Below, in pieces: positions 5,695 through 58,298 of a DNA stretch of 64,000 nucleotides. The DNA is taken from assembly GCA_002784045.1 (NCBI GenBank), contig PFJX01000113.1:2619-66618 (forward strand). The letters are read 5' to 3'. The notes beneath the pieces are model-generated. The model worked only from the letters and a program-made list of their open reading frames with translations. It was not told where the DNA came from and made no database searches. A program made the translations under genes and the position numbers. Within the stretch, counting starts at the first letter, position 1. The number at the start of each line of letters is the position of its first letter. Origin of the DNA: Hydrogenophilales bacterium CG_4_10_14_3_um_filter_63_21 (lineage in GTDB: Bacteria; Pseudomonadota; Gammaproteobacteria; Burkholderiales; Thiobacillaceae).

Positions 5695-6376
5695 GGGGCA
5701 AGCGGCCGTGTTGGCCTGTAGCGGGCTGCGCAAGAGCTACTGGCAGGGGCCGCTGGAAGTGCCGGTGCTGGACGGCGTCGATCTGATCGTTGCGCGTGGC
5801 GAGCACATCGCGGTGATGGGGGCTTCAGGCGCGGGGAAAAGTACCTTGCTGCATGTGCTGGGCGGCCTGGACCGGCCCGATGCCGGCACCGTCACGGTGG
5901 CGGGTGAGGCAATCTGGTCGCTCTCGGAACTGGCGCGCGGCCGCTTGCGCAATCGGGCGTTGGGCTTCGTCTACCAGTTTCACCACCTGCTGGCCGAGTT
6001 CACCGCCCTGGAAAATGTCGCCATGCCGTTGTTGATCCGCCGCCAGGAGCGCGCAAGCGCCTTGGCCGAAGCGGGCCGGCGGCTGCAAGAAGTGGGCCTT
6101 GGCCATCGTATGGCGCACCGTCCCGGCGAACTCTCCGGCGGCGAGCGCCAGCGCGCCGCCATCGCTCGCGCCCTGGTCACGCAACCGGCCTGTGTGCTGA
6201 TGGACGAACCCACCGGCAACCTGGACCGGCAAAGCGCCGGCCGCATCCAGGATCTGCTCATGGACCTCTCGCTGCGTCACGGCACCGCCTTCCTGGTCGT
6301 CACCCACGACCCCGACCTGGCCGCGCGCCTGGGGCGAGTGCTGCATTTGACCGATGGCATTTTGGCGCCGGCCTGA
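5687..6376 (+). CDS. lolD: Lipoprotein-releasing system ATP-binding protein LolD
   Basis: ORF 5585..6376 trimmed to ATG 5687 ([11 protein letters not shown]...). Walker [10 protein letters not shown], signature LSGGERQR, Walker B VLMDEP. Confidence 0.85.
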
Positions 6377-6496
6377 GGGCTGGTATCCTGAGCGCTGGCT
6401 GGTATGAAAACCGGAATCGCGTGGTGCGCTATCGTTTACCCCATCCCACGGACCGGTTGACACGAACCTACGGCCGTTCTCTTTTTGGAGATTGCC

Positions 6497-35405: not shown

Positions 35406-35663
35406 ATGGCCACCAGCGTCCGTCTACCCAACCGCGTCGAACAGGCGCTGGCCGCTTATTGCGTGGAAACCCAACGCAGCAAGTCGGAAGTCATCATCGA
35501 ACTGCTAGAGCAGCGTTTCAGCCTCGCCGAATCGGAAGCCACGCCTTATGAACGCGCCGAGGCGGCGGGGTTTATCGGTTGTGTCGAAGGTGCTGAGCCG
35601 GTTTCGGGTGGCTACAAGAAACGTGCTCAATCCGCGATTGCCGCCAAACACGGCCGCGCATGA
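35406..35663 (+). CDS. Ribbon-helix-helix antitoxin (VapB-like)
   Basis: 85 aa. MATSVRLPNRVEQALAAYCVETQRSKSEVIIELLEQRF has an RHH pattern. 4-nt overlap with the PIN gene. Confidence 0.7.
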   Translation: MATSVRLPNRVEQALAAYCVETQRSKSEVIIELLEQRFSLAESEATPYERAEAAGFIGCVEGAEPVSGGYKKRAQSAIAAKHGRA

Positions 35664-36070
35664 CCACCATCCTGGTGGATACCGGCCCCTTGGTGGCCTT
35701 GTCCGACAAGCGCGACAAGTTTCACGAAGCCAGCAAGACTTTCCTGAAGAACTATCGCGGCCGCCTGCTCACCACCTGGGCGGTGCTGACCGAGTTCTCC
35801 CATCTGGCGCCCTCGGTCGCGGCCACGCTGCCGCTGTATCGCTGGATCGACAACGGGGGATTGGAAGTTTTTCCCCTCGGGCGCGATGAACTCGTGCGCG
35901 CGGTGGACTGGATCGAGCGCTATGCCGATCAACCAATGGACCTGGCCGACGCCTCGCTGGTGGTTGCCGCGCTTGCCACCGGCCACACCCAGATCTGGAC
36001 GCTGGACCGCCTCGACTTCGAGACCTATCGGTTGCCCAGCCGCAAGCGCTTCAAGCTGGTTGGCCAGTAG
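35660..36070 (+). CDS. vapC: PIN-domain toxin (VapC-like)
   Basis: 136 aa. ILVDTGPLVAL (first acidic residue) ... TEFSHL ... DLADASLVV ... WTLDRLDF is a typical PIN acidic-residue pattern. Confidence 0.75.
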   Translation: MTTILVDTGPLVALSDKRDKFHEASKTFLKNYRGRLLTTWAVLTEFSHLAPSVAATLPLYRWIDNGGLEVFPLGRDELVRAVDWIERYADQPMDLADASLVVAALATGHTQIWTLDRLDFETYRLPSRKRFKLVGQ

Positions 36071-37917: not shown

Positions 37918-37949
37918 AAAAAAAGCCCCGCCGCGGAAGCCGGCGGGGC
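37918..37949 (-). terminator. Rho-independent terminator of the porin gene
   Basis: The minus strand reads gccccgccg-gcttccg-cggcggggc followed by TTTTTTT, about 35 nt after the stop at 37983. Confidence 0.8.
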
Positions 37950-37982: not shown

Positions 37983-39377
37983 TCAGTAAATCATCGTCAA
38001 TTGCACCCCCACCTTGTCACCCACCCCTTGCAGGTTGGCATTGGCGTTTGTGCAGGGAGCTCCCGCGGCAGTGCACTCGAAGTCACGCATCTCGTAGTTG
38101 ACGGTAACGCGTGTCTTGGGATTGAAGTGGTACTGCATCCCCAGGGTCCACTTGTCGAAGCGGTGCTCGTTCAGGCGCTCCTCAAGGCGGTTCAGGGTGT
38201 CGAAGCGCACATCGAGTTCGAACTTGGTGTTGGGGATGTACCAGCCGCCTTCGACATACCAGCCACTGGCCTTGGCATCGGCGCCATTGCCTTGGGCGGG
38301 AGCCGTAAAGTAGAAGTTGGGTTTGTCCGGGCCGCTCCAGATCATGCCATCCGCCGTGATGTACTCGGCCGTAACGCGGAACGGTTTCTTCATGTACTTC
38401 ACCCCCAGGCCGGCACGATCGCGGTTGTAGGATTTGGCGTTGGCCGTACTGTCAGCGGTGAGATCAAGAAGGCGCTTGCCCCACTGGCTCCAGGCGAAGA
38501 ACTTCAGGCCTGCCACATTGATGCCTTGGCCGCCGTACTTCTTCTCCGCTGACACATATAGGTACTTGTCGTATTCACCATCGCTGTTGTTGAACTGGAC
38601 GCCGTTGCCGTTGCCGATCATCGCCGCGTAGGACAGTTCCCAGTCTTTTCCCACATTGAAGGCATCGAACACCTGCACACCCACATCGCGGAAGGCGCCG
38701 ACCGAACTGTCGAATGTGTTCAGGCTGGCGCCGCCCTGAAGCTGGGCCTCGGTATACGGGCCAACATTGCTGGTGGCCGCGTTGCATGGAGCGGTGACCC
38801 CGGTGCAATCGGTGAACCCCTTGTTCGGGAACCGCTCCAGCAACAGGCCGTTGGTTGCTTCGGTGAAGTTGATGTAGTCGAAGACATGAATTGCCTGCAG
38901 CCCTTCTTCGGCGCCGGGCGTCTTGAACAGGCCGGCACGAATCCGTGCGCCCGGAATGTAATTCAGGGTAACGCTGGCATCGATCAGCTTGGCAAAGGCG
39001 CCGCTGGGGTGGGTGACTCCGTTGTTGCCCATCTCGAGCAACGCGAAATAGTTGATATTGCTGTCGAGCGGGAAGCCGGTGCCGCGGATGCCGATCGTGG
39101 CCCGCGGGATGTTGAAGCCGTCTTGTGTGTCGAGCTCAGGACCAAGCATTTTGGGCGCCACGAATCCCCCCGCGGCATTGGGGTCGCTGAAGTCCTTCTC
39201 ATACTTGGCCTGGACATACCCCCACACATTGGCGCGCGCCGAGGCGCCTGCCGGCTCGGTCCCCTGCAGCATGAGCCAGTTGGCGGCCAGCGCCGAGCCG
39301 GTGGCGCCGGCCAGGGCAAAAGCGTGGACGGCGCCAATCACGGTACGCTTGAACAGTTTCTTGCCTTGCATTTCCAT
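37983..39377 (-). CDS. Outer-membrane beta-barrel porin (family uncertain)
   Basis: 464 aa with a signal peptide ending ALA-ANW, alternating beta-strand pattern and a C-terminal ...GVQLTMIY aromatic end. Confidence 0.7.
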   Translation of the reverse strand: MEMQGKKLFKRTVIGAVHAFALAGATGSALAANWLMLQGTEPAGASARANVWGYVQAKYEKDFSDPNAAGGFVAPKMLGPELDTQDGFNIPRATIGIRGTGFPLDSNINYFALLEMGNNGVTHPSGAFAKLIDASVTLNYIPGARIRAGLFKTPGAEEGLQAIHVFDYINFTEATNGLLLERFPNKGFTDCTGVTAPCNAATSNVGPYTEAQLQGGASLNTFDSSVGAFRDVGVQVFDAFNVGKDWELSYAAMIGNGNGVQFNNSDGEYDKYLYVSAEKKYGGQGINVAGLKFFAWSQWGKRLLDLTADSTANAKSYNRDRAGLGVKYMKKPFRVTAEYITADGMIWSGPDKPNFYFTAPAQGNGADAKASGWYVEGGWYIPNTKFELDVRFDTLNRLEERLNEHRFDKWTLGMQYHFNPKTRVTVNYEMRDFECTAAGAPCTNANANLQGVGDKVGVQLTMIY

Positions 39378-39449
39378 TCCTCCTTGAGCAGATCCAACAG
39401 GATCAAAACAGGGCCGGTTGCCCTGAAAATGGGTAAAGCTATGTATTGA

Positions 39450-39896
39450 TCAGGGTTTGACGTAGATGTAGCCCTGCTTGACCAGCTCGCCGATGCGCAC
39501 GATGCCGCCGGGCACAACCTTGGCGACCGGGTTCAGCTTGGGTTCTTCACCGAGCTGCTTGGTGAAGCCCTTCAGCGTGTTGCCGCAAGCGGCGAAACGC
39601 ACGCCACTCTGAGCAAGAGAATCAAGACGCTGGGCGTTGACGTTGTTGGCGAACATCAGACGCAGGCCGGGGCCATAGGCCACGATCTCGATGTCCACTT
39701 GCCCGGGCGGGTAGGCCTCCAGGAGGTTCGCGGCGTTGTTCAGGATGAGATCCTGCTTGGAAGGATCCAGGTCACTGATGTGCAGGACGTAGTGGTAGTC
39801 CGCCATGCTTTGCTCGGCCGCCAGAACCGATGTGGGGTTGGTGATGGAAAGCAGGGAGATGAAGGCCAGGGCCAGGGTGCGTAGCGAGCAATACAT
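39450..39896 (-). CDS. Secreted DsrE/DsrF-like (COG1416-type) protein, paralogue 1
   Basis: 148 aa, signal peptide. Core YVLHISDLD...IEIVAYGPGLRLM...VRFAACGNTLKG...VVPGGIVRIGELVKQGYIYVKP. Confidence 0.7.
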   Translation of the reverse strand: MYCSLRTLALAFISLLSITNPTSVLAAEQSMADYHYVLHISDLDPSKQDLILNNAANLLEAYPPGQVDIEIVAYGPGLRLMFANNVNAQRLDSLAQSGVRFAACGNTLKGFTKQLGEEPKLNPVAKVVPGGIVRIGELVKQGYIYVKP

Positions 39897-40101
39897 CGAG
39901 AGTCTCCATTGGGTTGTAAATCATGAAATTGCGTCGTTGCTAGAGGCGCCGTAAGCAAGCCGATGGCCTGACGGTTATCGTCAAAGCACAGCATTTCGGG
40001 GGGGCGAGACGAAAGGAAGAAATTCCCCATCGTCTTGATCAATCTCCGGCCGGGACCGGAGGTTTGTCGGTGGTGAAACTGCCTGAGGCTTGAGTGCCAG
40101 C

Positions 40102-40581
40102 TCAGGGTTTCAGGTAGACAAAACCCTCTCTGGCCTGGAGCTTGCCGATTTCGGCGACACCGGAGGGCACCACCTGGGCTTCCAGGATCACGGCGCTGTC
40201 ATCCAGCTTGCGGCCCTTGAGGGTGTTGCGGCACACATCGAAAGTGACGCCGCGGTTCTTCAGGCCTGCCACTTGGGGTTCGTACAGGCCCTTGTCGTCC
40301 TTGGCCTCGTTGAGCAAGAAGTCGATGCCTTTGCCGTGGGTAACCACCACGATCTGGACGCCCGGGCTGGCATCCAGGTGGTTTTCTATATTGCGCAAAG
40401 CCATGCGTGCGACGCTGGCATCGTTGATGTGGTAGACCACTTTTTCCTGGACCGGCGCTTCTTCCACGACCGGCACGGCCGGCTTCATGTGTGTGGCGGC
40501 GGTGGCGGGGACACTGAAGCCCGCGCTTGCGGCGCCCAGTGCGAGGCTGAATAACGTGGCGCGAATCAATGAATGCTGCAT
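40102..40581 (-). CDS. Secreted DsrE/DsrF-like (COG1416-type) protein, paralogue 2
   Basis: 159 aa, signal peptide. Core VVYHINDAS...IVVVTHGKGIDFL...VTFDVCRNTLKG...VVPSGVAEIGKLQAREGFVYLKP. Confidence 0.7.
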   Translation of the reverse strand: MQHSLIRATLFSLALGAASAGFSVPATAATHMKPAVPVVEEAPVQEKVVYHINDASVARMALRNIENHLDASPGVQIVVVTHGKGIDFLLNEAKDDKGLYEPQVAGLKNRGVTFDVCRNTLKGRKLDDSAVILEAQVVPSGVAEIGKLQAREGFVYLKP

Positions 40582-40632
40582 GGTCTACTCCAAAGAGGGT
40601 TATGAGCGGGTGTTGTCAAACACCTTGCGAAT

Positions 40633-40661
40633 AAGACGGGCCGGCCTCTCTGTTTATTCCC
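40633..40661 (-). promoter_or_regulatory. Candidate ECF-type promoter GGGAATAAAC-N13-CGTCTT facing the DsrE-like/porin genes
   Basis: The minus strand reads GGGAATAAAC (40661..40652), 13 nt, CGTCTT (40638..40633). Both boxes are the same words as in the plus-strand copy. Confidence 0.5.
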
Positions 40662-40682
40662 GGATTTATTTTTCTCTTTGCA

Positions 40683-40711
40683 GGGAATAAACCGGGTGCC
40701 AGCTCCGTCTT
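40683..40711 (+). promoter_or_regulatory. Candidate autoregulated ECF-type promoter GGGAATAAAC-N13-CGTCTT facing the sigma factor gene
   Basis: GGGAATAAAC at 40683-40692, 13 nt, CGTCTT at 40706-40711. AGGAGA at 40730-40735 and TTG start at 40741. Confidence 0.5.
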
Positions 40712-40740
40712 GTTAAAACAAGGCCCACCAGGAGAAGCCT

Positions 40741-41286
40741 TTGTTGCCCTTCGTGTTCGATTTCGCCACTCGCCGCCGTCTCGAGGCCATGCGGCCCCGC
40801 TTGTACCGGCTGGCCTACGCTTGGTGCCATGACCCGCATCTGGCCGATGATCTGGCGCAGGATGCGCTGGCCAAGTCGCTCACCCGCATGGCGCAGTTGC
40901 GTGAGGCTCAGGCTCTGGAGGGCTGGCTGTTTTCGATCCTCAACAACTGTTGGCGCGATCATTTGCGTGGAGGCCGCGAGTTCGAGGACATCGCCGAGAT
41001 GGATGAGCTGATTTACTCCGGCGAGCCCGGCCCCGAGCAGCAGGTTTCCCGGCGCCAGACGCGTGACCGGGTGCGCCGCGCCATCGCCTGCCTGCCACTG
41101 GGGCAGCGCCAGGTGCTGACCCTGGTGGACATCGAGGAATGCGCCTATGCGCAAGTGGCCGGAATTCTGGAAATCCCGGTAGGCACGGTGATGAGCCGTC
41201 TCTCACGCGCGCGCCAGGCGTTGCGCGGGCTTCTGGAGAACGAGGATAAACGCGTCACGCAGACGCACCTCAGGAGGGTGAAATGA
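40741..41286 (+). CDS. ECF (group 4) sigma-70 family sigma factor
   Basis: 181 aa. Region 2 (LADDLAQDALAKSL...GWLFSILNNCWRDHLR) and region 4 (LPLGQRQVLTLVDIEECAYAQVAGILEIPVGTVMSRLSRAR). TTG start with a good SD. ATGA overlap with the next gene. Confidence 0.8.
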   Translation: MLPFVFDFATRRRLEAMRPRLYRLAYAWCHDPHLADDLAQDALAKSLTRMAQLREAQALEGWLFSILNNCWRDHLRGGREFEDIAEMDELIYSGEPGPEQQVSRRQTRDRVRRAIACLPLGQRQVLTLVDIEECAYAQVAGILEIPVGTVMSRLSRARQALRGLLENEDKRVTQTHLRRVK

Positions 41287-42014
41287 ACGAGTCAAAAAAC
41301 GAACCGGTTTCGCGCGAGCACATCAACGCTTATCTGGATGGCGAACTGGCCCTCGAGGAGCGCGAACACCTGCTAATTCGGATGGCGAGCGATCCCAACC
41401 TGCGCGCCGAAATTTGCGCCCAACGCACCCTCAAGGAACAGGTTCGCGCCGCTTATGACGACCTGCCGCGCCCCAATGCCAGCGCCACGCACCGCTACCT
41501 CAACGCGGCCTGGCGCCAATCGCTGGCGGCGGGGGTGTTGTTGGTCCTGGGCTTGAGCGGTGGCTGGTTGGCCCATGATCGTCTGGATCAATCGCCGGTA
41601 GTCGAGCGCCTAGCGGGCCTGCCCGCTGGTTTACAGCCGGTTACCCTGAGTGAACGGGTGGATACGCAACGCGTGGTTCTGCATCTCGATAGCAGCGCCC
41701 CAGAGCGCCTTTCCGCTTCACTGGATGTAGCGGAGCGTCTGGCGCGGTCACGCGGCCAGGGCCAGGTGGAGCTGGTGGTCAACAGCTTCGGACTGGACCT
41801 GCTGCGCCAGGATCGCAGCCCCGAGCGGGCGCGCATCGAGCGCCTGGCGGAACGTTATCCCAACCTGGTCTTCGTAGCCTGCGGCCAGACCGTGGCGCGC
41901 CTGCTGCGGGAAGGGCAACCAGTGGTGTTGCTGCCGGAGGCGCGCGTGGCCTCGTCCGCCATCAATGAAATCATGGCGCGACTGCGCCAGGGCTGGGTGT
42001 ACGTGAAAGTTTGA
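41283..42014 (+). CDS. Membrane anti-sigma factor with periplasmic DsrE-like domain
   Basis: 243 aa. N-terminal anti-sigma helix (HINAYLDGELALEEREHLL), one TM (LAAGVLLVLGLSGGWLA), then VVLHLDSS...VELVVNSFGLDLL...LVFVACGQTVAR...RLRQGWVYVKV, which is alignable to the two secreted paralogues. Confidence 0.7.
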   Translation: MNESKNEPVSREHINAYLDGELALEEREHLLIRMASDPNLRAEICAQRTLKEQVRAAYDDLPRPNASATHRYLNAAWRQSLAAGVLLVLGLSGGWLAHDRLDQSPVVERLAGLPAGLQPVTLSERVDTQRVVLHLDSSAPERLSASLDVAERLARSRGQGQVELVVNSFGLDLLRQDRSPERARIERLAERYPNLVFVACGQTVARLLREGQPVVLLPEARVASSAINEIMARLRQGWVYVKV

Positions 42015-43716: not shown

Positions 43717-44043
43717 ATGTTTGGCATGGTCAACATCAAGGAACTGGACGTCGATGCCCTCGACGCCAACAAGGCACAAATCCACCTGATCGACGTGCGC
43801 ACGGAAGGTGAGGTGTCGCGTGGCGTCATCGACGGGGCCATCCACATTCCGTTGCACCTGCTGCCGTTGCGCGCGACGGAAATTCCGCAGGACAAGCCGG
43901 TGGTGATCTACTGCAATTCGGGTGCCCGTTCCGCGCAAGCCTGTGCCTTCATGGCCGCCAAGGGCTTCCAAAATATGCACAATCTGTCGGGTGGCATCAT
44001 GGCCTGGGCGCGTTCCGGCAAGCCGCTCGCGGCCTTGTCCTGA
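43717..44043 (+). CDS. Single-domain rhodanese sulfurtransferase
   Basis: 108 aa with active-site loop CNSGARS. First gene of a rhd-tusA-dsrE2 arrangement. Confidence 0.8.
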   Translation: MFGMVNIKELDVDALDANKAQIHLIDVRTEGEVSRGVIDGAIHIPLHLLPLRATEIPQDKPVVIYCNSGARSAQACAFMAAKGFQNMHNLSGGIMAWARSGKPLAALS

Positions 44044-44154
44044 GCGCCTTGGGAGGGCTTGATCCAGGCCCTGGCCTCGCGTTGCAATCTCCCCACAAGC
44101 GGTATAAATTACCCCGGCTTTTTTAGCACTTGTTAATTTTCTGAAGGAACACCC

Positions 44155-44382
44155 ATGAACTTCGACAAAGAACTCGACGCCAAAGGGCTGAACTGCCCTC
44201 TGCCCATCCTTCGCTGCAAGAAGGCCCTGAACGATATGACCTCCGGCCAGATCCTGCGCGTGATCGCCACTGACCCGGGTTCCGTCAAGGACTTCGCCGC
44301 CTTTGCCAAACAGACCGGCAACGAACTCCTTACCTCCGCCGAAGCGGGTGGCGAGTACACCTTCTTCATCAAGAGGAAGTAA
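44155..44382 (+). CDS. tusA: TusA-family sulfur carrier
   Basis: 75 aa with the LDAKGLNCPLPILRCKKAL CPxP motif. Confidence 0.85.
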   Translation: MNFDKELDAKGLNCPLPILRCKKALNDMTSGQILRVIATDPGSVKDFAAFAKQTGNELLTSAEAGGEYTFFIKRK

Positions 44383-44418
44383 GCACTTCTTTCCAACAAT
44401 CGCGTTTCGAGAGGTGGT

Positions 44419-44934
44419 GTGATGGACGATACAAAGAAGCTGGCGATCATTGCGACCAAGGGCACGCTGGACTGGGCTTACCCCCCGTTCATTCTGGCGT
44501 CCACGGCCGCCGCCCTGGGTTATGAAACCCAGATTTTCTTCACCTTCTACGGCCTGCAGATGCTGCGCAAAGATCTGAGCTGCCTGAAGGTCAGCCCCCT
44601 GGGCAACCCGGGTATGCCCATGAAGATGCCGTTCGGACCGAAGTGGTTCAAGGACATCAACTGGAACATCCCCAACGCCGTGCAATCGCTGATTCCGGGC
44701 TACGAATCCCTGGCCACCACCCTGATGAAGCAAACCATCAAGAACAACGGCGTGGCAACCATCCCTGAACTGCGTGAGCTGTGCCAGGAAGCCGAAGTCA
44801 AGTTCATCGCCTGCCAGATGACGGTCGAATTGTTTGGCTTCGAACACAGCGACTTTATCGACGGCATCGAATACGGCGGCGCCGCCACCTTCTTCGAATT
44901 CGCCGGCGAGACGGACATCTGTCTGTTCATTTAA
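44419..44934 (+). CDS. dsrE2: DsrE2-like (DsrE/DsrF family) protein
   Basis: 171 aa. KLAIIATKGTLDWAYPPFILASTAAALG...FIACQMTV... follows tusA, as in described rhd-tusA-dsrE2 clusters. Confidence 0.75.
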   Translation: MMDDTKKLAIIATKGTLDWAYPPFILASTAAALGYETQIFFTFYGLQMLRKDLSCLKVSPLGNPGMPMKMPFGPKWFKDINWNIPNAVQSLIPGYESLATTLMKQTIKNNGVATIPELRELCQEAEVKFIACQMTVELFGFEHSDFIDGIEYGGAATFFEFAGETDICLFI

Positions 44935-51654: not shown

Positions 51655-53466
51655 ATGAAGAACCACCCCCCTCATCCCCGCAAGGCGCTCGGACTGGTCT
51701 TGGCCGGCATCCTGCTCGGCGGCCTCTCCGGCCCGTGGGCACAAGCCGCTGCGGCGGCCCCGCCCTCGTATGAGGCGGAGATACTGCGCAGATTGCAGGA
51801 ACTGGAAAGCCAGGTTGCCCAGTACCGAACCGAGACCGCGCGCTTGCAGGCGGAACTCGCCAGGCGGGAAAGCGGCCAGGCGGCCCTGCCGCTTACCGCC
51901 GCCGTGCCGTCGCCCCAGGGCAAACCCGCCGCCGCCGATGAATGGGGTGAGCCCGAGGTCGTCAAGAAGGCGGAAGGGCGCGACGAGGAAGCCCGTCGCC
52001 GGCTGACTGCGCTGGAGACCCAGTACCGCAAGACCGCCGCCGAGGCTGCCAAGCAGGATGAGGCGCAAAGAGACAAGGTCAAGTACGACTTTTCCGCCAA
52101 ATTCAAGACCCGGGTCAATGTTCGCGACAACTTCAACCTGGACAACCCGGCTCAGGCCTGGAAATACGATAACGCGACCTTCGTCGATTACCGCTTCCAA
52201 CTGGGCATCGAGGCTTCCTACGATCAGTTTCTCGCCAAGTTTTTGCTCGACAAGGGCAACTTCGTGTTCGACTGGAAGGAAGACGGCGAAGGCACGCTGG
52301 AGCGCTGGGGGCAGTTCCAGACCGTCAACTCCGCCATGGTGCGTGAACTCTATGCGCAGTACACGGGGTCGTTCATGGTGCGTCTCGGTCGCCAGAACTG
52401 GGAGGGCGATATCGTCCTGCAAGGCCCGATGGATTCGATCCGCCTCCAGTACCCCTTCGGACAACTGCCCTGGGGGCAGACCACGCTGACGGCCGGTTAC
52501 CTCGCGGTTTCCGGCGGCTGGCCCAACTACACGGGTTTCAAAGCTTCCGGCGGTCCGCCCGCCGGCGACCGCGGTGCCTTGCTGGGCGCCTACAACGACC
52601 TCGACGCTTATTATCTCGACCTGGACATCCGCGCTTCGAAGGCGCTGCGCATCAAGCCCTATCTCATCAAGGTGATCGACAACGGCAATGCCGGCAGCGC
52701 CGACCTGAACCTGGACAAGGACTTCGACGACACCACCATGCGCCGCGACGGCGGTTTCGAACCGCTCTGGACCGGGCTTACCGCGAGCGCCGAGTTCAAG
52801 GGGCTGAAACTGGATGCCGAGGCGGTCTGGCTGACCGGGGATGTCGCCAGGGGCCGCAAGGTCGACGCCCATGCCTTCCTGGTCCAGGCCAACCGCGATT
52901 TCGGCCCGGTGGCGTCCCTGAAGAGCCTCTCCGCCGGGTTGCAATTCGGCCTGGGCTCCGGCAACGGCACGCGCGATAACTCCGGTCTCGGCACGGGGAC
53001 GCTGAGCAACTTCAACGGCCTGTCGCTCTGCCGCGACCGGAACAAGTTCGGCAATATCTTCAGCGAGGACATCCGCGCCGGCTATTTCCTGTGGGACAGC
53101 AACCTGTCCAACATCACCTATGTGCGTCTGGATGCCACCCTGGAACCGGTCAAGAGCCTGCGTCTGACGCCCTCGATCAGCCGCATCTGGACCACCGAAC
53201 CGGTGTTCGCCGGCGCCGGTCCGGTGTTCGACTGGAGCAGGGGTTTCAACTTCGCGATCACCAACCCGACCACGGCCAGCACGACGCGCACGACCAACGA
53301 TGTGGGCTGGGAGATCGACCTGGACGTGACTTATCCGCTGTTCAAGAACCTGGACAGCTTCCTTTCATTGGGTTATTTCCGGCCCGGCGCGGTCTATGCC
53401 CGGCCCGACGGCAGCAACCCCAAGGCCGCCTACGAAATCGTCCTCGGCGGCGAGTTCAAGTTCTGA
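51655..53466 (+). CDS. Outer-membrane beta-barrel protein with N-terminal coiled coil
   Basis: 603 aa. Signal peptide, about 100 aa of heptad-like Glu/Arg/Ala/Gln-rich helix (EAEILRRLQELESQVAQYRTETARLQAELARRE), then an alternating beta-strand pattern ending ...VLGGEFKF. Confidence 0.7.
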   Translation: MKNHPPHPRKALGLVLAGILLGGLSGPWAQAAAAAPPSYEAEILRRLQELESQVAQYRTETARLQAELARRESGQAALPLTAAVPSPQGKPAAADEWGEPEVVKKAEGRDEEARRRLTALETQYRKTAAEAAKQDEAQRDKVKYDFSAKFKTRVNVRDNFNLDNPAQAWKYDNATFVDYRFQLGIEASYDQFLAKFLLDKGNFVFDWKEDGEGTLERWGQFQTVNSAMVRELYAQYTGSFMVRLGRQNWEGDIVLQGPMDSIRLQYPFGQLPWGQTTLTAGYLAVSGGWPNYTGFKASGGPPAGDRGALLGAYNDLDAYYLDLDIRASKALRIKPYLIKVIDNGNAGSADLNLDKDFDDTTMRRDGGFEPLWTGLTASAEFKGLKLDAEAVWLTGDVARGRKVDAHAFLVQANRDFGPVASLKSLSAGLQFGLGSGNGTRDNSGLGTGTLSNFNGLSLCRDRNKFGNIFSEDIRAGYFLWDSNLSNITYVRLDATLEPVKSLRLTPSISRIWTTEPVFAGAGPVFDWSRGFNFAITNPTTASTTRTTNDVGWEIDLDVTYPLFKNLDSFLSLGYFRPGAVYARPDGSNPKAAYEIVLGGEFKF

Positions 53467-53468
53467 CC

Positions 53469-53825
53469 ATGAACAAGATCGCCCGCACCCTCATCCTGAT
53501 CGCCGGCATGGCGGCGGCCTTCGCCACCCCGCCGGCAGCGTGGTCCGAGGACATGCCTTACCTGAACGTCTTCACCGAGCGCCTGTGCACCCTGCGGCCG
53601 CCGCCGGTATTTGCCTTCCGGGCGGAGGCCACCGGCCTGACACCGCCCCTGAAATTCCACTGGGATCTCGGCAACGAACAAGTATGGGAAGGCCAGCATG
53701 TGCCGGAGCAGGCCTACGATTTCGGCCGCTACAACGTGATTCTGAGCGTGACGGATGCCACCGGGCGGACCCGGCGGGCGAGCCTGACGATCGACGCGAG
53801 TGCGCCCGGCTGCGGTGGAATTTGA
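53469..53825 (+). CDS. Secreted PKD-domain protein
   Basis: ORF 53091..53825 trimmed to ATG 53469 (MNKIARTLILIAGMAAAFA). PKD signature WDLGNEQ...YDFGRYNVILSVTDATGRT. Ends ...SAPGCGGI. Confidence 0.65.
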   Translation: MNKIARTLILIAGMAAAFATPPAAWSEDMPYLNVFTERLCTLRPPPVFAFRAEATGLTPPLKFHWDLGNEQVWEGQHVPEQAYDFGRYNVILSVTDATGRTRRASLTIDASAPGCGGI

Positions 53826-53852
53826 AATTCATTACTTTGGAACGAAACCCTC

Positions 53853-54803
53853 ATGAAACTTGAAAACTTTGCAAAATGCATGGCAATCGCGGCCTTGCTG
53901 GTGTGCCACCCCATCGCTTGGGCCGACGAGGAATCGAGCGTGCGCCTGACCCAGAGCGATGGCGCCGTCGAGATCGTCAAGGCGGGCGCGGCGGCCGGGT
54001 CACCCGCCCGCGAGGGCGCGGTCCTCGAACGGGGCGACCGCCTGGTCACCCGCGACAAGTCCGCCGCGCTGCTGCTGTGGTCCAATGGCAGCATGGTCAA
54101 GCTCTATCCCAACACCGAAATCGTGCTGGCGGGTGTCTCCTTCGATCTGGAAAAGAAGATGGAAATGACCTTGCTGGACCTGGAGAAAGGGCGCCTCTTC
54201 GTCAAGGCGCAAGTCCCGGAACACCTGTTCTCCGAATTCAAGGTGCGCATGGGCGGGCAGGAGCTGCGCACCCAGGGGGCCGAGTTTGCCCTTGCCCATG
54301 ACGCGGAGAAGAAAAGCTTCAAGGCGCTGTCCCTGAGTGGTCGTCTGGTGATGGACCTGGGCACCACTCGCCTCAGGATCGACGACGGCCAGCAGGCCGC
54401 GGCCAACATCGGCGGCAAGTTGACCCAGGACGACATCAAGCCCATGGAAGACAAGACCCGGCAATCCCTGGCCAAGGTCTCCAAGGACCTGGGCGGCAGC
54501 CTGCTCATGGAAGAGACCGTCGGCGCCACCGGCGGGAAGCTTGTCATCAAGATCGGCGGCGTGGCCAACCGGCGCGGCAGCACACCGTACAAGGTGAATT
54601 TCAAGGCCCTGGTCAAGGGCGGCAGCGGCAAGCTCAAATCCGTCACCTGGGACTTCGGCGACGGCGAGTCCGCCGCCGGCAGGGAGGCGGAGCACACCTT
54701 CACCCAGGGCCTGTACGTGGTCATCCTGCGGGCCGAGGACGAAAACGGCGACAAGGCCTCCGCCCAGACCGGCATCTCGGTGGAGGCGGACTGTGGCTGC
54801 TGA
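53853..54803 (+). CDS. Secreted FecR-domain protein with C-terminal PKD domain
   Basis: 316 aa with a signal peptide ending AWA. FecR-like beta-sandwich region (GDRLVTRDKSAALLLWSNGSMVKLYPNTEI), then WDFGDGESAAGREAEHTFTQGLYVVILRAEDENGD. Ends ...EADCGC. Confidence 0.6.
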   Translation: MKLENFAKCMAIAALLVCHPIAWADEESSVRLTQSDGAVEIVKAGAAAGSPAREGAVLERGDRLVTRDKSAALLLWSNGSMVKLYPNTEIVLAGVSFDLEKKMEMTLLDLEKGRLFVKAQVPEHLFSEFKVRMGGQELRTQGAEFALAHDAEKKSFKALSLSGRLVMDLGTTRLRIDDGQQAAANIGGKLTQDDIKPMEDKTRQSLAKVSKDLGGSLLMEETVGATGGKLVIKIGGVANRRGSTPYKVNFKALVKGGSGKLKSVTWDFGDGESAAGREAEHTFTQGLYVVILRAEDENGDKASAQTGISVEADCGC

Positions 54804-54830
54804 GCGTGGACATCCCATAGGAGGCTGAAA

Positions 54831-55802
54831 ATGCTGACGGATGGTTGTGGACGCCGCGTGGATTACTTGAGGCTATCGGTCACGGATCGCTGTGATCTGC
54901 GCTGCTCGTATTGCATGCCGACGGGGTTCAAGGATTACGAGGAACCCGCGCATTGGCTGAGCTTCGACCAGATCGAGCGTCTGCTGTCCGTCTTTGCCCG
55001 CCTGGGGATGCGCCGAATCCGGCTGACCGGCGGCGAACCCCTGCTGCGCAACAACCTGACCGAGCTGGCCCGCCGGCTCGCCGCGCTGCCGGGTGTGGAG
55101 GACCTGTCCCTGTCCACCAACGGCACCCAGTTGGCTAAATACGCATCCCGATTGAAGGCAGCGGGGGTCACGCGGCTGAACGTCAGCCTGGACTCCCTGG
55201 ACCGCCGGCGGGTCCGCGCCATCACCAAGCGGGATGTCCTGCCCCAGGTGCTCGATGGCCTCGAAGCCGCGCGGGCGGCGGGCTTCTCGCTCATCAAGGT
55301 CAACATGGTGGCGCTGGCCGGCACGACCGACGCCGACATCGAAAACATGGTGGCCTACTGCATGGAACGGGGCTTCGTGCTGCGCCTGATCGAGACCATG
55401 CCGGTGGGCGCGACCGGCCGCGATGCGGGCTACCTGGATCTGCGCCCGGTGCGGGAGCGGCTGCGCGCGCGCTTCGGGCTGGTGGACGGCGTGGTGCCGG
55501 GCGGCGGCCCCGCCCGCTATCTGGTCGCTCCAGACGGGGGCTTCCAGATCGGCTTCATCACGCCGATCTCGCAGCACTTCTGCGCAACCTGCAATCGGGT
55601 GCGCCTGTCGGTGGACGGCCGGATGTTCCTGTGCCTGGGCCAGGATAACGCGGTGGATTTCCGCCGCCTGCTGTTGGACGGTGGCGACGACGCGGCCATC
55701 GAGCGGGCCTTGCTGGACGGGCTGCGCGCCAAGCCGGCGCGCCACGAGTTCAACCAACAACCGGACCGGATCGTGCGATTCATGTCCATGACCGGGGGGT
55801 AG
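54831..55802 (+). CDS. moaA: GTP 3',8-cyclase MoaA (radical SAM)
   Basis: 323 aa with YLRLSVTDRCDLRCSYCMP and the C-terminal cluster CATCNRVRLSVDGRMFLC. Confidence 0.9.
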   Translation: MLTDGCGRRVDYLRLSVTDRCDLRCSYCMPTGFKDYEEPAHWLSFDQIERLLSVFARLGMRRIRLTGGEPLLRNNLTELARRLAALPGVEDLSLSTNGTQLAKYASRLKAAGVTRLNVSLDSLDRRRVRAITKRDVLPQVLDGLEAARAAGFSLIKVNMVALAGTTDADIENMVAYCMERGFVLRLIETMPVGATGRDAGYLDLRPVRERLRARFGLVDGVVPGGGPARYLVAPDGGFQIGFITPISQHFCATCNRVRLSVDGRMFLCLGQDNAVDFRRLLLDGGDDAAIERALLDGLRAKPARHEFNQQPDRIVRFMSMTGG

Positions 55803-55904
55803 CGAAATGCCGTGCTTACGACGATCAAGGGCTGGGGAAATTCCGGTCGGCAGCGGCCGCGATGAAGCGGAAGTCGGACTTTGGGAAACACTTTGGAGAA
55901 GATC

Positions 55905-58298
55905 ATGATTGAGATGGAACTGACCAGAAGAACCTTTCTGAAGGTGGCCGGAGCCTCCGCCGCCGTCGCCGGACTGCCGCTCTCCAGCGGCGCCGAAGCT
56001 GCACCCGTCGCCACGACTTTCGGCGCCGCCGGCGCAGCGCCCGTGCCCGACCAGGTGGTGACTGCGGGCTGCCCGTTTTGCCAGAGCACCTGCAGCATGA
56101 AGGTGCATGTCCGCGAGGGCCGCATCGTGAATGTCTACGGCAATCCGGACGACCCGGTCACGGAAGGCAGGCTCTGCCCCAAGGGCCAGGCCAGCGTGGA
56201 TATGCTCTACAACAAGTATCGCCTCAAGTCGCCGCTGAAACGGGTGGGGCCGCGCGGCAAGCCGGAGTCCTATCAGGAGATCAGTTGGGATCAGGCGTTG
56301 ACGGAGATCGCCGACAAGCTCAAGGCCGTCAGTGTCAAACACGGGCCGGAGGCGCTGGCCTGGTGGGTGGGGGGCAGGAGCGAATCCCAGGCGCGCGCGG
56401 GGCTGACCGGCACGTTCCAGAAACTCTACGGCACGCCTCACCGCGAGGGCACCGGGCCGTTCTGCAACCTGGCCGGCACCACCGCATCGAATTCCATCCT
56501 GGGCCACAACAACCCGCCCTGGACCTACACCCGGGACGACTTCGGCGGCGCGGATTGGTACATGCTCGTCGGCGCCAACATGGCCGCCTGCAAAGTCGTG
56601 GCCTTCGGCAAGGTCAATGACCGGCGGGTCATGGGCAAGGCCAAAATCATCGCGGTGGACCCGCGCATGTCGGAAACCGCCGGCGCGGCCGATCTGTGGC
56701 TGCCGATCAAGCCTTCCACGGACATGGCGCTGGCCCTGGCGATGATGCATCACATCATCGAGAAGGACCTGCACAACAAGGCGTTCATCGAGAAGAAGGT
56801 GCTGGGCTTCGACAAGCTGAAGGCCTTCCTCGCCGAGAAGCAATACACCCCGGAATGGGCCGAGAAGGTCACCGGCATCCCGGCCGCGATCATCAAGGAG
56901 ATTTCGGAAGAATATGCCCGCACCGAGAAGGCGGTCATCATGGGCAATGCGGGCCTCTCCCATCACACCAACGGCCACATCACGCACCGCACCTTCCACA
57001 TGCTCGCCGCGATCACCGGCCATTACGGCAAGCCCTCCATGGGCTACGGTTGCGGCAATACCGGCGCGACGCCGATGGGCAGCATTTCGGTGCCGGAAGA
57101 CCGGGTGGTCAAACCCAAGCGGCAACGGCTGGGACGCTCGCCTGCCGCCTGGGTCGAGCCGATGATCACCGGCAAGCCCTATCCCATCAAGGCCTTCATC
57201 TCCACCAGCAATCCGCTGGTGCAGTGGGGGGATATCCAGCGCGCCATGACCGCCCTCGACAACCTGGATGTCTCCGTTTACTACAGCATGTTCCCCAGTA
57301 TCGAGACGCAGTATTTCGATTACATCCTGCCGGTATCGCCCTGGGCGGAGTCGGGCGGCGTGACGCCGGTGTCCGACGAGCGCCGCAACATCTTCGTGCC
57401 GCACATCATCCAGCCGCAGCACCAGGCCTGGCCGGAGCGCTGGATATTCATCGAACTGGGCAAGAAGATGGGCTGGGGCGACATCTTCAAGGACGAATAT
57501 AAGGACGCCATCGTGCTGCAACGGGCGATGGCCAAGAAGACCGGTTTTTCGCCCGAGCGTTTCCTCGCCAAGAAAGATGCCGCGCTGCGGGGGCCGCTGC
57601 CCAAGCCGGACTCGCCCGAGGTGGGCACCCTGTACACCGAAGCGCATGGCGTGCCCGGCAAGAAGGGGCAGTTTCCCCGGCCCTCGGGCAAGATCGAGAT
57701 CTGGACCGAGGTACTGGAGAAGATGTATGCGGCCCAGGGCATCAGCCCCCTGCCCGAGTTCTACGTGGATCCCGAGATCGGCATGAAAGACGGGCTGCCT
57801 TACCTGGAATATCTGGACTCCGATTCGGATGTCGGCATCACTTCGCTGATGAAGGGCATCGTCGCGGTCGGCAACATGCGGGCGCGGCGGGTCAAGATCA
57901 AGTACCCGGAAAAACCCGAACTGGCGGACTTCGACATGTACCTGACCTCCGGCCGTCCGAGTGCGGCGCACTTCGGCGACGGCACCCATTGGATACAAAG
58001 CCTCAACGACCAGGCCCCCGATCAGTTCTGCCTGATCCATCCCGACAAGGCCGCGCGCATCGGCGTGGTCACCGGCGACACGGTCAAGGTGGAAGGGCTC
58101 AAAGGCGCCGTGCTGGCCAAGGCATGGGTCTACGAGGGAATACGCAAGGACACGGTGTTCGTGCCCAACACCTATTCGGACCGGCAACCGTTCGCCCAGT
58201 GGAAGTCCCTGAACTTCATCGTCGACAAGGACAAGCGCTGTCCGGTCTCCGACCAGATCAACTACAAGGCGCTGGTCTGCAAGGTCACCAAGGCCTAG
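55905..58298 (+). CDS. Second Tat-exported Mo-bisPGD oxidoreductase catalytic subunit (Psr/Phs/Fdh-like clade, substrate unknown)
   Basis: ORF 55881..58298; ATG 55905 with GGAGA upstream. Twin-arginine signal LTRRTFLKVAGASAAVAG, FeS motif CPFCQSTC...C, and a candidate Cys Mo ligand in GTGPFCNLAG. Confidence 0.75.
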   Translation: MIEMELTRRTFLKVAGASAAVAGLPLSSGAEAAPVATTFGAAGAAPVPDQVVTAGCPFCQSTCSMKVHVREGRIVNVYGNPDDPVTEGRLCPKGQASVDMLYNKYRLKSPLKRVGPRGKPESYQEISWDQALTEIADKLKAVSVKHGPEALAWWVGGRSESQARAGLTGTFQKLYGTPHREGTGPFCNLAGTTASNSILGHNNPPWTYTRDDFGGADWYMLVGANMAACKVVAFGKVNDRRVMGKAKIIAVDPRMSETAGAADLWLPIKPSTDMALALAMMHHIIEKDLHNKAFIEKKVLGFDKLKAFLAEKQYTPEWAEKVTGIPAAIIKEISEEYARTEKAVIMGNAGLSHHTNGHITHRTFHMLAAITGHYGKPSMGYGCGNTGATPMGSISVPEDRVVKPKRQRLGRSPAAWVEPMITGKPYPIKAFISTSNPLVQWGDIQRAMTALDNLDVSVYYSMFPSIETQYFDYILPVSPWAESGGVTPVSDERRNIFVPHIIQPQHQAWPERWIFIELGKKMGWGDIFKDEYKDAIVLQRAMAKKTGFSPERFLAKKDAALRGPLPKPDSPEVGTLYTEAHGVPGKKGQFPRPSGKIEIWTEVLEKMYAAQGISPLPEFYVDPEIGMKDGLPYLEYLDSDSDVGITSLMKGIVAVGNMRARRVKIKYPEKPELADFDMYLTSGRPSAAHFGDGTHWIQSLNDQAPDQFCLIHPDKAARIGVVTGDTVKVEGLKGAVLAKAWVYEGIRKDTVFVPNTYSDRQPFAQWKSLNFIVDKDKRCPVSDQINYKALVCKVTKA

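Follow-up and report, generated by a model that had tools for sequence, protein, structure and literature searches.

A candidate ECF26-like sigma/anti-sigma switch with a DsrE-like periplasmic sensor domain in sulfur-oxidising bacteria

The window analysed here is a 64 kb stretch of the genome of Hydrogenophilales bacterium CG_4_10_14_3_um_filter_63_21, and all coordinates are given in window numbering. It contains a module of five genes. Genes for a porin and for two secreted DsrE-like proteins, here called P1 and P2, lie on the minus strand, and genes for a sigma factor of the extracytoplasmic function (ECF) type and its anti-sigma factor lie divergently on the plus strand. It is, on balance, probable that the module is a switch of the ECF26 type in which a DsrE-like periplasmic domain of the anti-sigma factor senses sulfur species, and which drives P2, with P1 and the porin, as well as itself. 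That a single-pass anti-sigma factor would hold the sigma factor, and that the latter would control its own expression and that of the divergent DsrE-like gene or genes, is well supported by comparison of the sequence with those of related loci (labelled L001 to L071). The five open reading frames (ORFs) and the peptide strings quoted for them in the initial annotation of the window were found in the window translations, as were the divergent arrangement and the 4 bp ATGA overlap of the sigma and anti-sigma genes (...GTG AAA TGA over ATG AAC).

The anti-sigma factor (41283-42014, plus strand, 243 residues) ends in the candidate sensor domain (residues 129-243, 41667-42014). It had been proposed that this domain can be aligned with P1 (39450-39896, minus strand, 148 residues) and P2 (40102-40581, minus strand, 159 residues), and pairwise BLASTP places the homology of the three well beyond chance. 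Residues 132-242 of the anti-sigma factor match P1 with E=6e-11 and 29% identity, the anti-sigma factor matches P2 with E=1e-6, and P1 and P2 match each other with E=7e-14. A family profile of 32 anti-sigma relatives matched MTH1491 (1L1S) in the PDB with E=1e-14 over positions 127-241, and ST0148 (2PD2) with E=7.5e-7. The AlphaFold2 (AF2) model of the anti-sigma factor has a mean predicted local distance difference test score (pLDDT) of 87.5, rising above 90 across the C-terminal domain. Three helices (11-18, 24-36 and 38-59) are followed in it by a long hydrophobic one (73-100) and then by an alpha/beta domain (130-242). In Foldseek searches the model of the sensor domain matched 1L1S with a TM-score (TMt) of 0.88 and a root-mean-square deviation of 1.9, and also 2PD2 (0.80), YchN 1JX7 (0.67) and the DsrE-like protein 3PNX. 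The sensor domain is predicted from these models to have the three-layer alpha/beta DsrE fold of the COG1416/MTH1491 type. P1 and P2 are themselves above the Pfam PF02635 DsrE cut-off of 22.7 bits (26.4 bits, E=8.6e-6, and 40.2 bits, E=4.2e-10), and the P1 family includes 463 matches named 'DsrE family protein'. The PF02635/COG1416 fold suggested for all three proteins is therefore recovered, by Pfam for P1 and P2, and by the MTH1491 profile match with the AF2 and Foldseek results for the anti-sigma factor.

The sensor domain has a single cysteine, Cys200 (codon 41880-41882). This residue is invariant in 150 of 150 anti-sigma representatives that share no more than 50% mutual identity, and the periplasmic domain carries exactly one Cys in all of them. 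Trp238, Tyr240 and Asp19 are likewise invariant in the 150, and His134, Asn167, Gly170 and Gly237 are kept in at least 94%. The sensor of the window protein thus retains the family signature residues His134, Asn167/Gly170, Cys200 and GW-Y. The only Cys of mature P1 is Cys104 (codon 39585-39587, motif AACGNT) and the single Cys of P2 is Cys117 (codon 40231-40233, motif CRNT); exactly one Cys is found in each of 120 close P2 homologues. When aligned, one Cys column is common to the sensor domain, P1, P2, a Sulfuritalea paralogue, MTH1491 and ST0148, so that the invariant Cys first noticed in the three window domains extends to both proteins of known structure. In the AF2 model Cys200 closes strand 195-200 and is followed by helix 201-209, a topological position that matches that of TusD (...NIC78VAAAL). 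In DsrE and TusD, the corresponding Cys is the site of persulfide loading.

The remainder of the anti-sigma factor is made up of a probable cytoplasmic anti-sigma domain (ASD) of three helices (residues 1-61, 41283-41465) and a single transmembrane helix (residues 73-100, 41499-41582). The AF2 model, with its one hydrophobic helix, agrees with the N-terminal helices and single membrane segment of the initial annotation, and the sensor domain should, from this arrangement, face the periplasm. The Pfam family zf-HC2 matched the window protein with E=0.004 and 15 of the 32 relatives, at best with 7e-5, and none of these matches reached the gathering threshold. The top two PDB matches of an N-terminal anti-sigma profile were MucA and RseA_N, both weak (E about 0.05). 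In an alignment made by eye to the consensus of zinc-binding anti-sigma factors (ZAS), the HxxxCxxC zinc motif is absent from the ASD. The motif positions are occupied by Arg, Asp37 and Leu40, and positions 37 and 40 are mostly Asp and Leu across 150 relatives. The only N-terminal Cys, Cys45 (codon 41415-41417), lies outside the ZAS motif in ASD helix 3, on the cytoplasmic side, and is kept in 121 of 150 relatives (81%). The membrane helix contains a near-invariant GxxxG-W motif (G90xxxG94-W95, 41550-41567), which could be an oligomerisation or site-2 protease feature.

The sigma factor (40741-41286, plus strand, 181 residues) starts at a TTG codon and ends in an LRRVK tail. It matches Sigma70_r2 (E=2.4e-12) and Sigma70_r4_2 (E=1.4e-15) in Pfam and TIGR02937 sigma70-ECF with 79.9 bits against a cut-off of 42.9, and it holds the sigma2 and sigma4 regions only, as ECF (group 4) sigma-70 factors do. 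Its PDB matches are SigE, SigH, AlgU, SigW and RpoE. A tblastn search against plasmids returned relatives of 36-44% identity. One of these, on a Gluconobacter plasmid (L071), is 42% identical over its full length (E=2e-32) and shares the LRRVK tail. At this plasmid locus genes for a cytochrome b and a catalase-family peroxidase are divergent from the sigma/anti-sigma pair, which fits the ECF26s1 neighbourhood described by Casas-Pastor et al., with catalase at -1 and cytochrome b at -2. It also carries a back-to-back GGAATAAA-N14-CGTC pair. The anti-sigma factors of the two loci are homologous in the ASD and membrane helix (window residues 6-100, E=2e-5 by BLAST). There is no BLAST match between their C-terminal domains, and a search with the COG1416 hidden Markov model (HMM) was negative for two anti-sigma factors encoded beside related sigma genes, those of L071, with its context of ECF26s1 type, and L070 (an S. 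meliloti plasmid). Since the N-terminal halves are homologous and the C-terminal domains are unrelated, the C-terminus of the anti-sigma factor has been replaced.

The promoter consensus reported for ECF26 is -35 GGAAT and -10 CGTC (PMC6527743, Tan et al. 2019). It was validated for the sulfite-responsive SmRpoE4 and SnSigE, and SnRpoE1 responds to tetrathionate (PMC6527743). Both elements are present at two sites in the 159 bp gap between the P2 and sigma genes, where two GGAATAAAC-N13-CGTC sequences lie back to back. The minus-strand site (40635-40660) would be the promoter of P2, and of P1 and the porin beyond it, with its -35 GGAAT at 40660-40656, a 17-nt spacer and its -10 CGTC at 40638-40635. 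The plus-strand site (40684-40709; -35 GGAAT 40684-40688, -10 CGTC 40706-40709) begins 57 nt upstream of the sigma TTG start and would be autoregulatory. Transcription is predicted to begin near 40626 from the minus-strand site and near 40718 from the plus-strand site. The exact pattern GGAAT-N17-CGTC occurs just twice in the window, both times divergently in this gap; for the longer promoter pattern 0.01 matches would be expected in the window. Taken together, the sigma factor, the promoter motif and the part of the anti-sigma factor formed by the ASD and membrane helix appear to be ECF26-like. The described ECF26 contexts, genes for sulfite-oxidising enzymes or for catalase and cytochrome b561, are not matched by the divergent genes of the window, which encode secreted DsrE-like proteins with or without a porin, and the anti-sigma factor differs from the canonical COG5662-type ECF26 anti-sigma factor in its periplasmic C-terminal region. 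The initial annotation had stated that no described ECF group uses a DsrE-like sensor. This stands for the fusion, of which no description was found in the searchable literature, and does not stand in so far as it implied an orphan ECF type. A literature search for a COG1416/MTH1491 or DsrE family protein tied to a sigma factor likewise returned nothing relevant, and the main text of the ECF reclassification paper makes no mention of DsrE or sulfur.

The two promoters are widely conserved. Related loci were surveyed in 62 cases, and counts are over the 60 that are not truncated at the sigma side. A plus-strand copy lies 5' of the sigma gene in 58 of the 60, and a minus-strand copy is found in 42 of the 45 loci with a divergent DsrE gene against 5 of the 15 without one. 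The family consensus from 52 and 41 distinct sites is TGGAATAAA-N14-CGTCTTA, in fuller form aTGGAATAAA-N14-CGTCtTA, for both copies. The spacers vary almost everywhere, and the A after GGAAT and the TA after CGTC are kept even though the search pattern did not require them. At L068, an independent genomic location with the same five genes, there are again only two exact matches, both in the same gap. L067, in which P2 stands without the sigma and anti-sigma genes, has no such motif upstream of P2, in agreement with a link between the motif and the sigma factor. In L006 a terminator follows P2, and a third GGAATAAAC-N13-CGTC copy then lies ahead of P1. To judge from this conservation, it is very probable that the divergent genes are under the control of the sigma factor.

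These counts bear on the proposal that the sigma factor induces the DsrE-like carriers together with a dedicated porin: the conserved twin promoters agree with it for the carrier, and the porin and P1 prove to be accessory. The P2-type DsrE gene appears to be the core target. P2 is 64-94% identical across loci, even where the anti-sigma factors share only about 50%. P1 with the porin, or the porin alone, is found in about 10 of the 60 loci, and a porin also stands beside the DsrE genes in L068. The porin (37983-39377, minus strand, 464 residues) is a Porin_O_P protein of the OprO/OprP anion-selective type (PF07396 with 41.1 bits where the cut-off is 20.9, and E=1.7e-10; E=1.5e-15 for the L024 orthologue). 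The signal peptides proposed for P1 and P2 are typical N-terminal ones when read by eye, as is that of the porin. Two Cys-x6-Cys pairs are present in the porin, in similar CT..APC loops (Cys435/442, 38054-38077, and Cys191/198, 38786-38809). They were rejected as a family feature, with only the second pair kept and that only in close relatives. The porin as an ExtI selenite/tellurite porin (NF040900) was also rejected, at 21.4 bits against a cut-off of 150 and over the C-terminal 75 residues only, as was P1 as the selenium-metabolism protein YedF, at 12.5 bits against 110. With both scores so far below their cut-offs, they are not counted as a link to selenium.

The P2-P1-porin unit is closed by a strong intrinsic terminator (37925-37949, minus strand) consisting of GCCCCGCCG...CGGCGGGGC followed by a T7 run. 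A weak hairpin followed by TTTTGATCC lies between P1 and the porin gene (39409-39425, minus strand) and is a possible attenuator. Directly 3' of P2 there is a hairpin of the CCTCCGG-N5-CCGGAGG type (40044-40062, minus strand) with no T-run, and a second inverted repeat, TGACGATAACCGTCA, lies further on in the P2-P1 intergenic region (39969-39983, minus strand). Both are kept in L001, L002 and L014 and may act in processing or attenuation, or may bind a regulator. A GGAAT...CGTC sequence with a 10-nt spacer was rejected as a promoter for P1 or the porin.

The fusion of an anti-sigma factor to a DsrE-like domain is not confined to this window. A word-indexed search found 129 full-length anti-sigma relatives with 37-100% identity, and with an exhaustive profile search through 1.84 billion representatives the number of clusters was 510 for E<=1e-30 and 935 for E<=1e-10. 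All of the 150 best relatives are 221-303 residues long and match end to end. The fusion family comprises about 510 clusters at 50% identity, publicly named 'hypothetical protein', for example WP_131447096.1 from the cultured Parasulfuritortus cantonensis, where the module lies at EZJ19_09850-09860; the Joint Genome Institute (JGI) label is COG1416. In a neighbour-joining tree all of the sensor domains form one clade, sister to P1 and P2, which indicates that the fusion arose once. The 62 loci are from Thiobacillus and other Thiobacillaceae, Hydrogenophilales, Tepidiphilus, Hydrogenophilus, Gallionellaceae, Sulfuritalea, Thiotrichales, Chromatiales and Thiohalophilus, and all of these are lineages of sulfur oxidisers. 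The sigma gene is immediately upstream of the anti-sigma gene in 60 of 60 untruncated loci. A divergent gene for a secreted COG1416 protein is present in 45 of the 60; it is P2-type, except that the Sulfuritalea proteins form a separate clade. In L057 a secreted paralogue is downstream and co-operonic with the anti-sigma gene. The survey of genomes for the fusion and its neighbours that the initial annotation had suggested thus reveals a large family in which the sigma gene is always adjacent and a divergent DsrE gene is frequent. L068 and L069 carry the five-gene unit at another place in the chromosome.

A mechanism can be proposed that fits these features. In the resting state the N-terminal helices of the anti-sigma factor would hold the sigma factor at the membrane, as in other single-pass anti-sigma factors. 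The periplasmic DsrE-like domain would be the input, with the lone invariant Cys200 as its reactive site. The most likely signal would be a reactive inorganic sulfur species that covalently modifies the Cys200 thiol. The product could be a persulfide, if polysulfide or another form of sulfane sulfur is the source, or an S-thiosulfonate, if it stems from the chemistry of tetrathionate or thiosulfate. For comparison, DsrE3A and TusA form Cys-S-thiosulfonates with tetrathionate (PMC4175335). The sulfur could reach Cys200 directly or be handed over by secreted P2 or P1. Modification would inactivate the anti-sigma factor, probably via regulated proteolysis of the RseA/MucA type, and free the sigma factor. 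The free sigma factor would then read the two TGGAATAAA-N14-CGTCTTA promoters, one of them autoregulating the sigma and anti-sigma genes and the second driving P2 and, in this genome, P1 and the anion-type porin as far as the terminator at 37925. A more specific version, in which P2 and perhaps P1 pick up sulfane or thiosulfonate sulfur and trans-persulfidate Cys200, with the covalent loading state of this Cys as the transmembrane signal that releases the sigma factor, is put forward tentatively and with low confidence.

Several points weigh against the proposed mechanism. The Pfam DsrE family misses the sensor domain of the window, and only 1 of the 32 relatives is matched at E<=0.01. Comparison of COG1416 domains with E. 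coli TusD (2D1P) by hhalign is not significant (E=0.15-0.38), and the best alignment pairs both Cys. The claim that this is the same Cys as in DsrE and TusD is therefore topological only; the earlier identification of Cys200 with the sulfur-carrying position is thus consistent in topology and falls short of statistical equivalence with TusD Cys78. Sulfur loading of the sensor Cys is extrapolated from DsrE, TusD and DsrE3, because none of the COG1416/MTH1491 proteins is known to have an experimentally established function. Sulfite sensing by canonical ECF26 systems takes place without any DsrE-like domain, and placement in ECF26 is based on relatives, neighbourhood and promoter consensus. The Fisher p of 8.5e-6 for the association of the minus-strand promoter with a divergent DsrE gene overstates independence, because the loci share ancestry. 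In 14 of the 60 modules no other secreted COG1416 gene was found within +/-7 kb with the family HMM in six-frame translations. Conversely, L067 has a P2 orthologue (6001-6456, 70% identity) in the same gnd/zwf...glgA slot as many Thiobacillus loci, without the sigma and anti-sigma genes and with no motif upstream of P2. The sensor and the carriers are therefore not obligatorily coupled, and the secreted carrier has a function that is independent of the switch. No ECF promoter lies directly upstream of P1 or the porin gene in the window, so both are presumably transcribed by read-through of the T-less hairpin after P2. Finally, in five loci a divergent GGAATAAA-N14-CGTC copy on the minus strand faces no recognisable gene. 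Neither a DsrE-like gene nor any other credible one was found behind the copies at L035 ~3419, L037 ~5554, L050 ~6377, L059 3181-3206 and L060 2667-2692, and these may be vestigial or may drive a small RNA or peptide. The copy of L059 is directed into an rpiA-like gene at its 3' end.

Other roles can be envisaged for the periplasmic domain. It may dock P2, P1 or both, much as RseB and MucB dock on RseA and MucA, with the amount or loading of free P2 deciding whether the anti-sigma factor is protected from proteolysis and so providing negative feedback on P2 synthesis. Such partner binding would suit a sensor and targets that share a fold, one family member of which, ST0148, is a building block of a designed T33 cage (8UJA); T33 cage components and MTH1491 are trimers. 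It would also suit the direct control of P2 by the sigma factor in 45 of 60 loci, the co-operonic paralogue of L057, the far greater conservation of P2 than of the sensor (about 80% against about 50% identity), the resemblance of the ASD to RseA and MucA, and the GxxxG of the membrane helix, which suggests oligomerisation. However, the modules that lack a nearby secreted paralogue (14 of 60) and the occurrence of P2 without the module are hard to accommodate, and a role as an interface alone leaves the invariant single Cys and the pocket residues unexplained. Product feedback of this kind is considered unlikely, with the qualification that the version involving a relay is compatible with sulfur sensing and the two are not strictly exclusive.

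It is rather improbable that the lone Cys instead senses an oxidant, through sulfenic acid formed by H2O2 or HOCl, or a thiophilic toxicant such as Cu, Hg, Cd, As, Se or Te, with P2 and P1 as protective periplasmic thiol proteins apart from sulfur energy metabolism. The nearest sigma relatives found, of ECF26s1 type, are indeed paired with catalase-family peroxidase and cytochrome b genes, and the conserved His134/Cys200 pair could ligate a metal. Yet the characterised signals of ECF26 systems are sulfur oxyanions, the distribution of the module is restricted to sulfur-oxidising lineages, and sulfur transfer is the only characterised chemistry of the fold family (PMC4175335). The weak matches of P1 to YedF and of the porin to ExtI, which might have pointed to selenium or tellurium, are far below their cut-offs (12.5 against 110 and 21 against 150 bits). 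It is very unlikely that the DsrE-like domain is a membrane-anchored working carrier without a sensory role, the sigma factor being freed by generic envelope stress or an unlinked protease signal: the domain does keep all of the family signature residues, as an active paralogue would, and several loci have a gene for a DegS-like protease at a distance of 2-5 kb, but that neighbour is lineage-specific synteny, single-pass anti-sigma factors normally receive their signal through the extracytoplasmic domain, the fusion is monophyletic and always paired with a sigma factor, and an output of paralogous carriers argues for a dedicated circuit rather than a general stress circuit.

Some neighbouring genes were also noted. 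In one subclade (L068 1002-3984; L031, L044, L052 and L055) the anti-sigma gene is overlapped at its end by a gene for a 601-residue DUF255/Thioredox_DsbH thioredoxin-domain protein, and the two probably share a transcript. A gene for a DegS/AlgW-like Trypsin_2+PDZ protease adjoins the thioredoxin-domain gene, and the protease is also found in L040 and L048. It is possible that these two genes are accessory redox and site-1 protease components, or that they reflect lineage synteny. In L062 (5031-5823, plus strand) and 11 other Sulfuritalea loci, a gene of the TauE/SafE family (sulfite/organosulfonate exporter; Pfam E=3.5e-54) is convergent to the divergent DsrE-like gene. The neighbours gnd, zwf and glgA were rejected as members of the system, being lineage synteny. 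The window itself holds a cytoplasmic sulfur-relay set of rhodanese (108 residues), TusA (75 residues) and DsrE2 (171 residues; NF047629, 264 bits against a cut-off of 210) at 43717-44934 on the plus strand. This cluster is 1.7 kb downstream of the anti-sigma gene, with tRNA-Pro, an ispB-like gene and tRNA-Thr between, and no ECF26-type promoter lies ahead of it. Between a murA-like gene and glgA there are overlapping ORFs (35406-36070, plus strand) that by eye resemble a ribbon-helix-helix antitoxin (85 residues) and a PIN-domain VapC-type toxin (136 residues). Unrelated to the module are the genes at 51655-58298 (plus strand) for an Alginate_exp-type outer-membrane protein, a FecR+PKD protein, MoaA and an 805-residue molybdopterin oxidoreductase, as identified by Pfam.

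To our knowledge, it is poorly understood how chemolithotrophic sulfur oxidisers perceive reduced and intermediate sulfur compounds outside the cytoplasm, and the sulfane-sulfur sensors we know of are cytoplasmic repressors or sigma-54 activators. The module is a widespread and unannotated candidate for the extracytoplasmic sensing of sulfur compounds. It would be missed by surveys of domain architecture that use Pfam, because the Pfam DsrE family does not detect the sensor domain. With a hypothesis that concerns one residue, Cys200, and with two defined promoters, it is directly testable. It also opens a way to the function of COG1416/MTH1491, an orphan family of structural genomics that here would work in the periplasm with an absolutely constrained Cys. 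Were the relay to prove true, this would be the first extracytoplasmic sensor derived from a sulfur-relay fold and the first function assigned to COG1416/MTH1491. The family suggests that ECF26 has diversified by a swap of the sensor domain while the promoter code was retained, and the module could serve as it stands as an orthogonal ECF switch, possibly one responsive to sulfur compounds.

The module is closest to the ECF26 systems, among them S. meliloti RpoE4-SMc04050 with sorT, Starkeya novella SigE with sorAB, the RpoE1-type systems and ECF26s1 with catalase and cytochrome b561. It shares with them a sigma factor of about 42% identity with the LRRVK tail, an overlapping downstream anti-sigma gene whose ASD and membrane half is homologous, the promoter elements -35 GGAAT(AAA) and -10 CGTC, and autoregulation together with a divergent or adjacent periplasmic target. 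The characterised members respond to the sulfur oxyanions sulfite and tetrathionate. It differs from them in the periplasmic half of the anti-sigma factor, which is DsrE-like, of COG1416 type and has an invariant Cys, and in its targets: secreted DsrE-like proteins, alone or together with a porin, take the place of the sulfite dehydrogenase, catalase-like or cytochrome b genes. The hosts of the fusion are also distinct, being chemolithotrophic sulfur oxidisers of the Beta- and Gammaproteobacteria.

Like RseA and MucA, which function with RseB/MucB, DegS/AlgW and RseP, the anti-sigma factor would be a single-pass protein with its N-terminus inside, no zinc motif and a periplasmic input, and a periplasmic partner is plausible. 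Unlike in RseA, the periplasmic domain is a folded alpha/beta module of the DsrE-like type, and the sigma factor is not RpoE or AlgU (ECF02), matching those structures with E of about 1e-10 to 1e-15. Protease steps of the RseA/MucA type are attributed to the module by analogy only. With DsrE, TusD and DsrE3, and with MTH1491 (1L1S) and ST0148 (2PD2), the three module domains share the fold, and they have a conserved Cys in the same topological place, at the end of beta3 and start of alpha3. Whereas DsrEFH, TusBCD and DsrE3 are cytoplasmic, the domains of the module would be periplasmic, two of them secreted and one tethered to the membrane as a signalling input.

In regulating genes for the handling of sulfur compounds, the module resembles CstR, SqrR/BigR, FisR, the RsrS-RsrR and TspS-TspR systems of Acidithiobacillus, and TtrSR. 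Sensing by CstR and SqrR is covalent and Cys-based, and CstR, SqrR/BigR and FisR are cytoplasmic. Two-component systems sense thiosulfate or tetrathionate in the periplasm (PMC5093147). The module is unlike all of these known sulfur-species sensors in its ECF sigma/anti-sigma chassis, in the DsrE-like fold of its sensor and in the periplasmic location of its candidate reactive Cys. From the sequence comparisons, the signalling chassis and the promoter code would be those already known from ECF26, and the DsrE-like sensor on the anti-sigma factor would be new.

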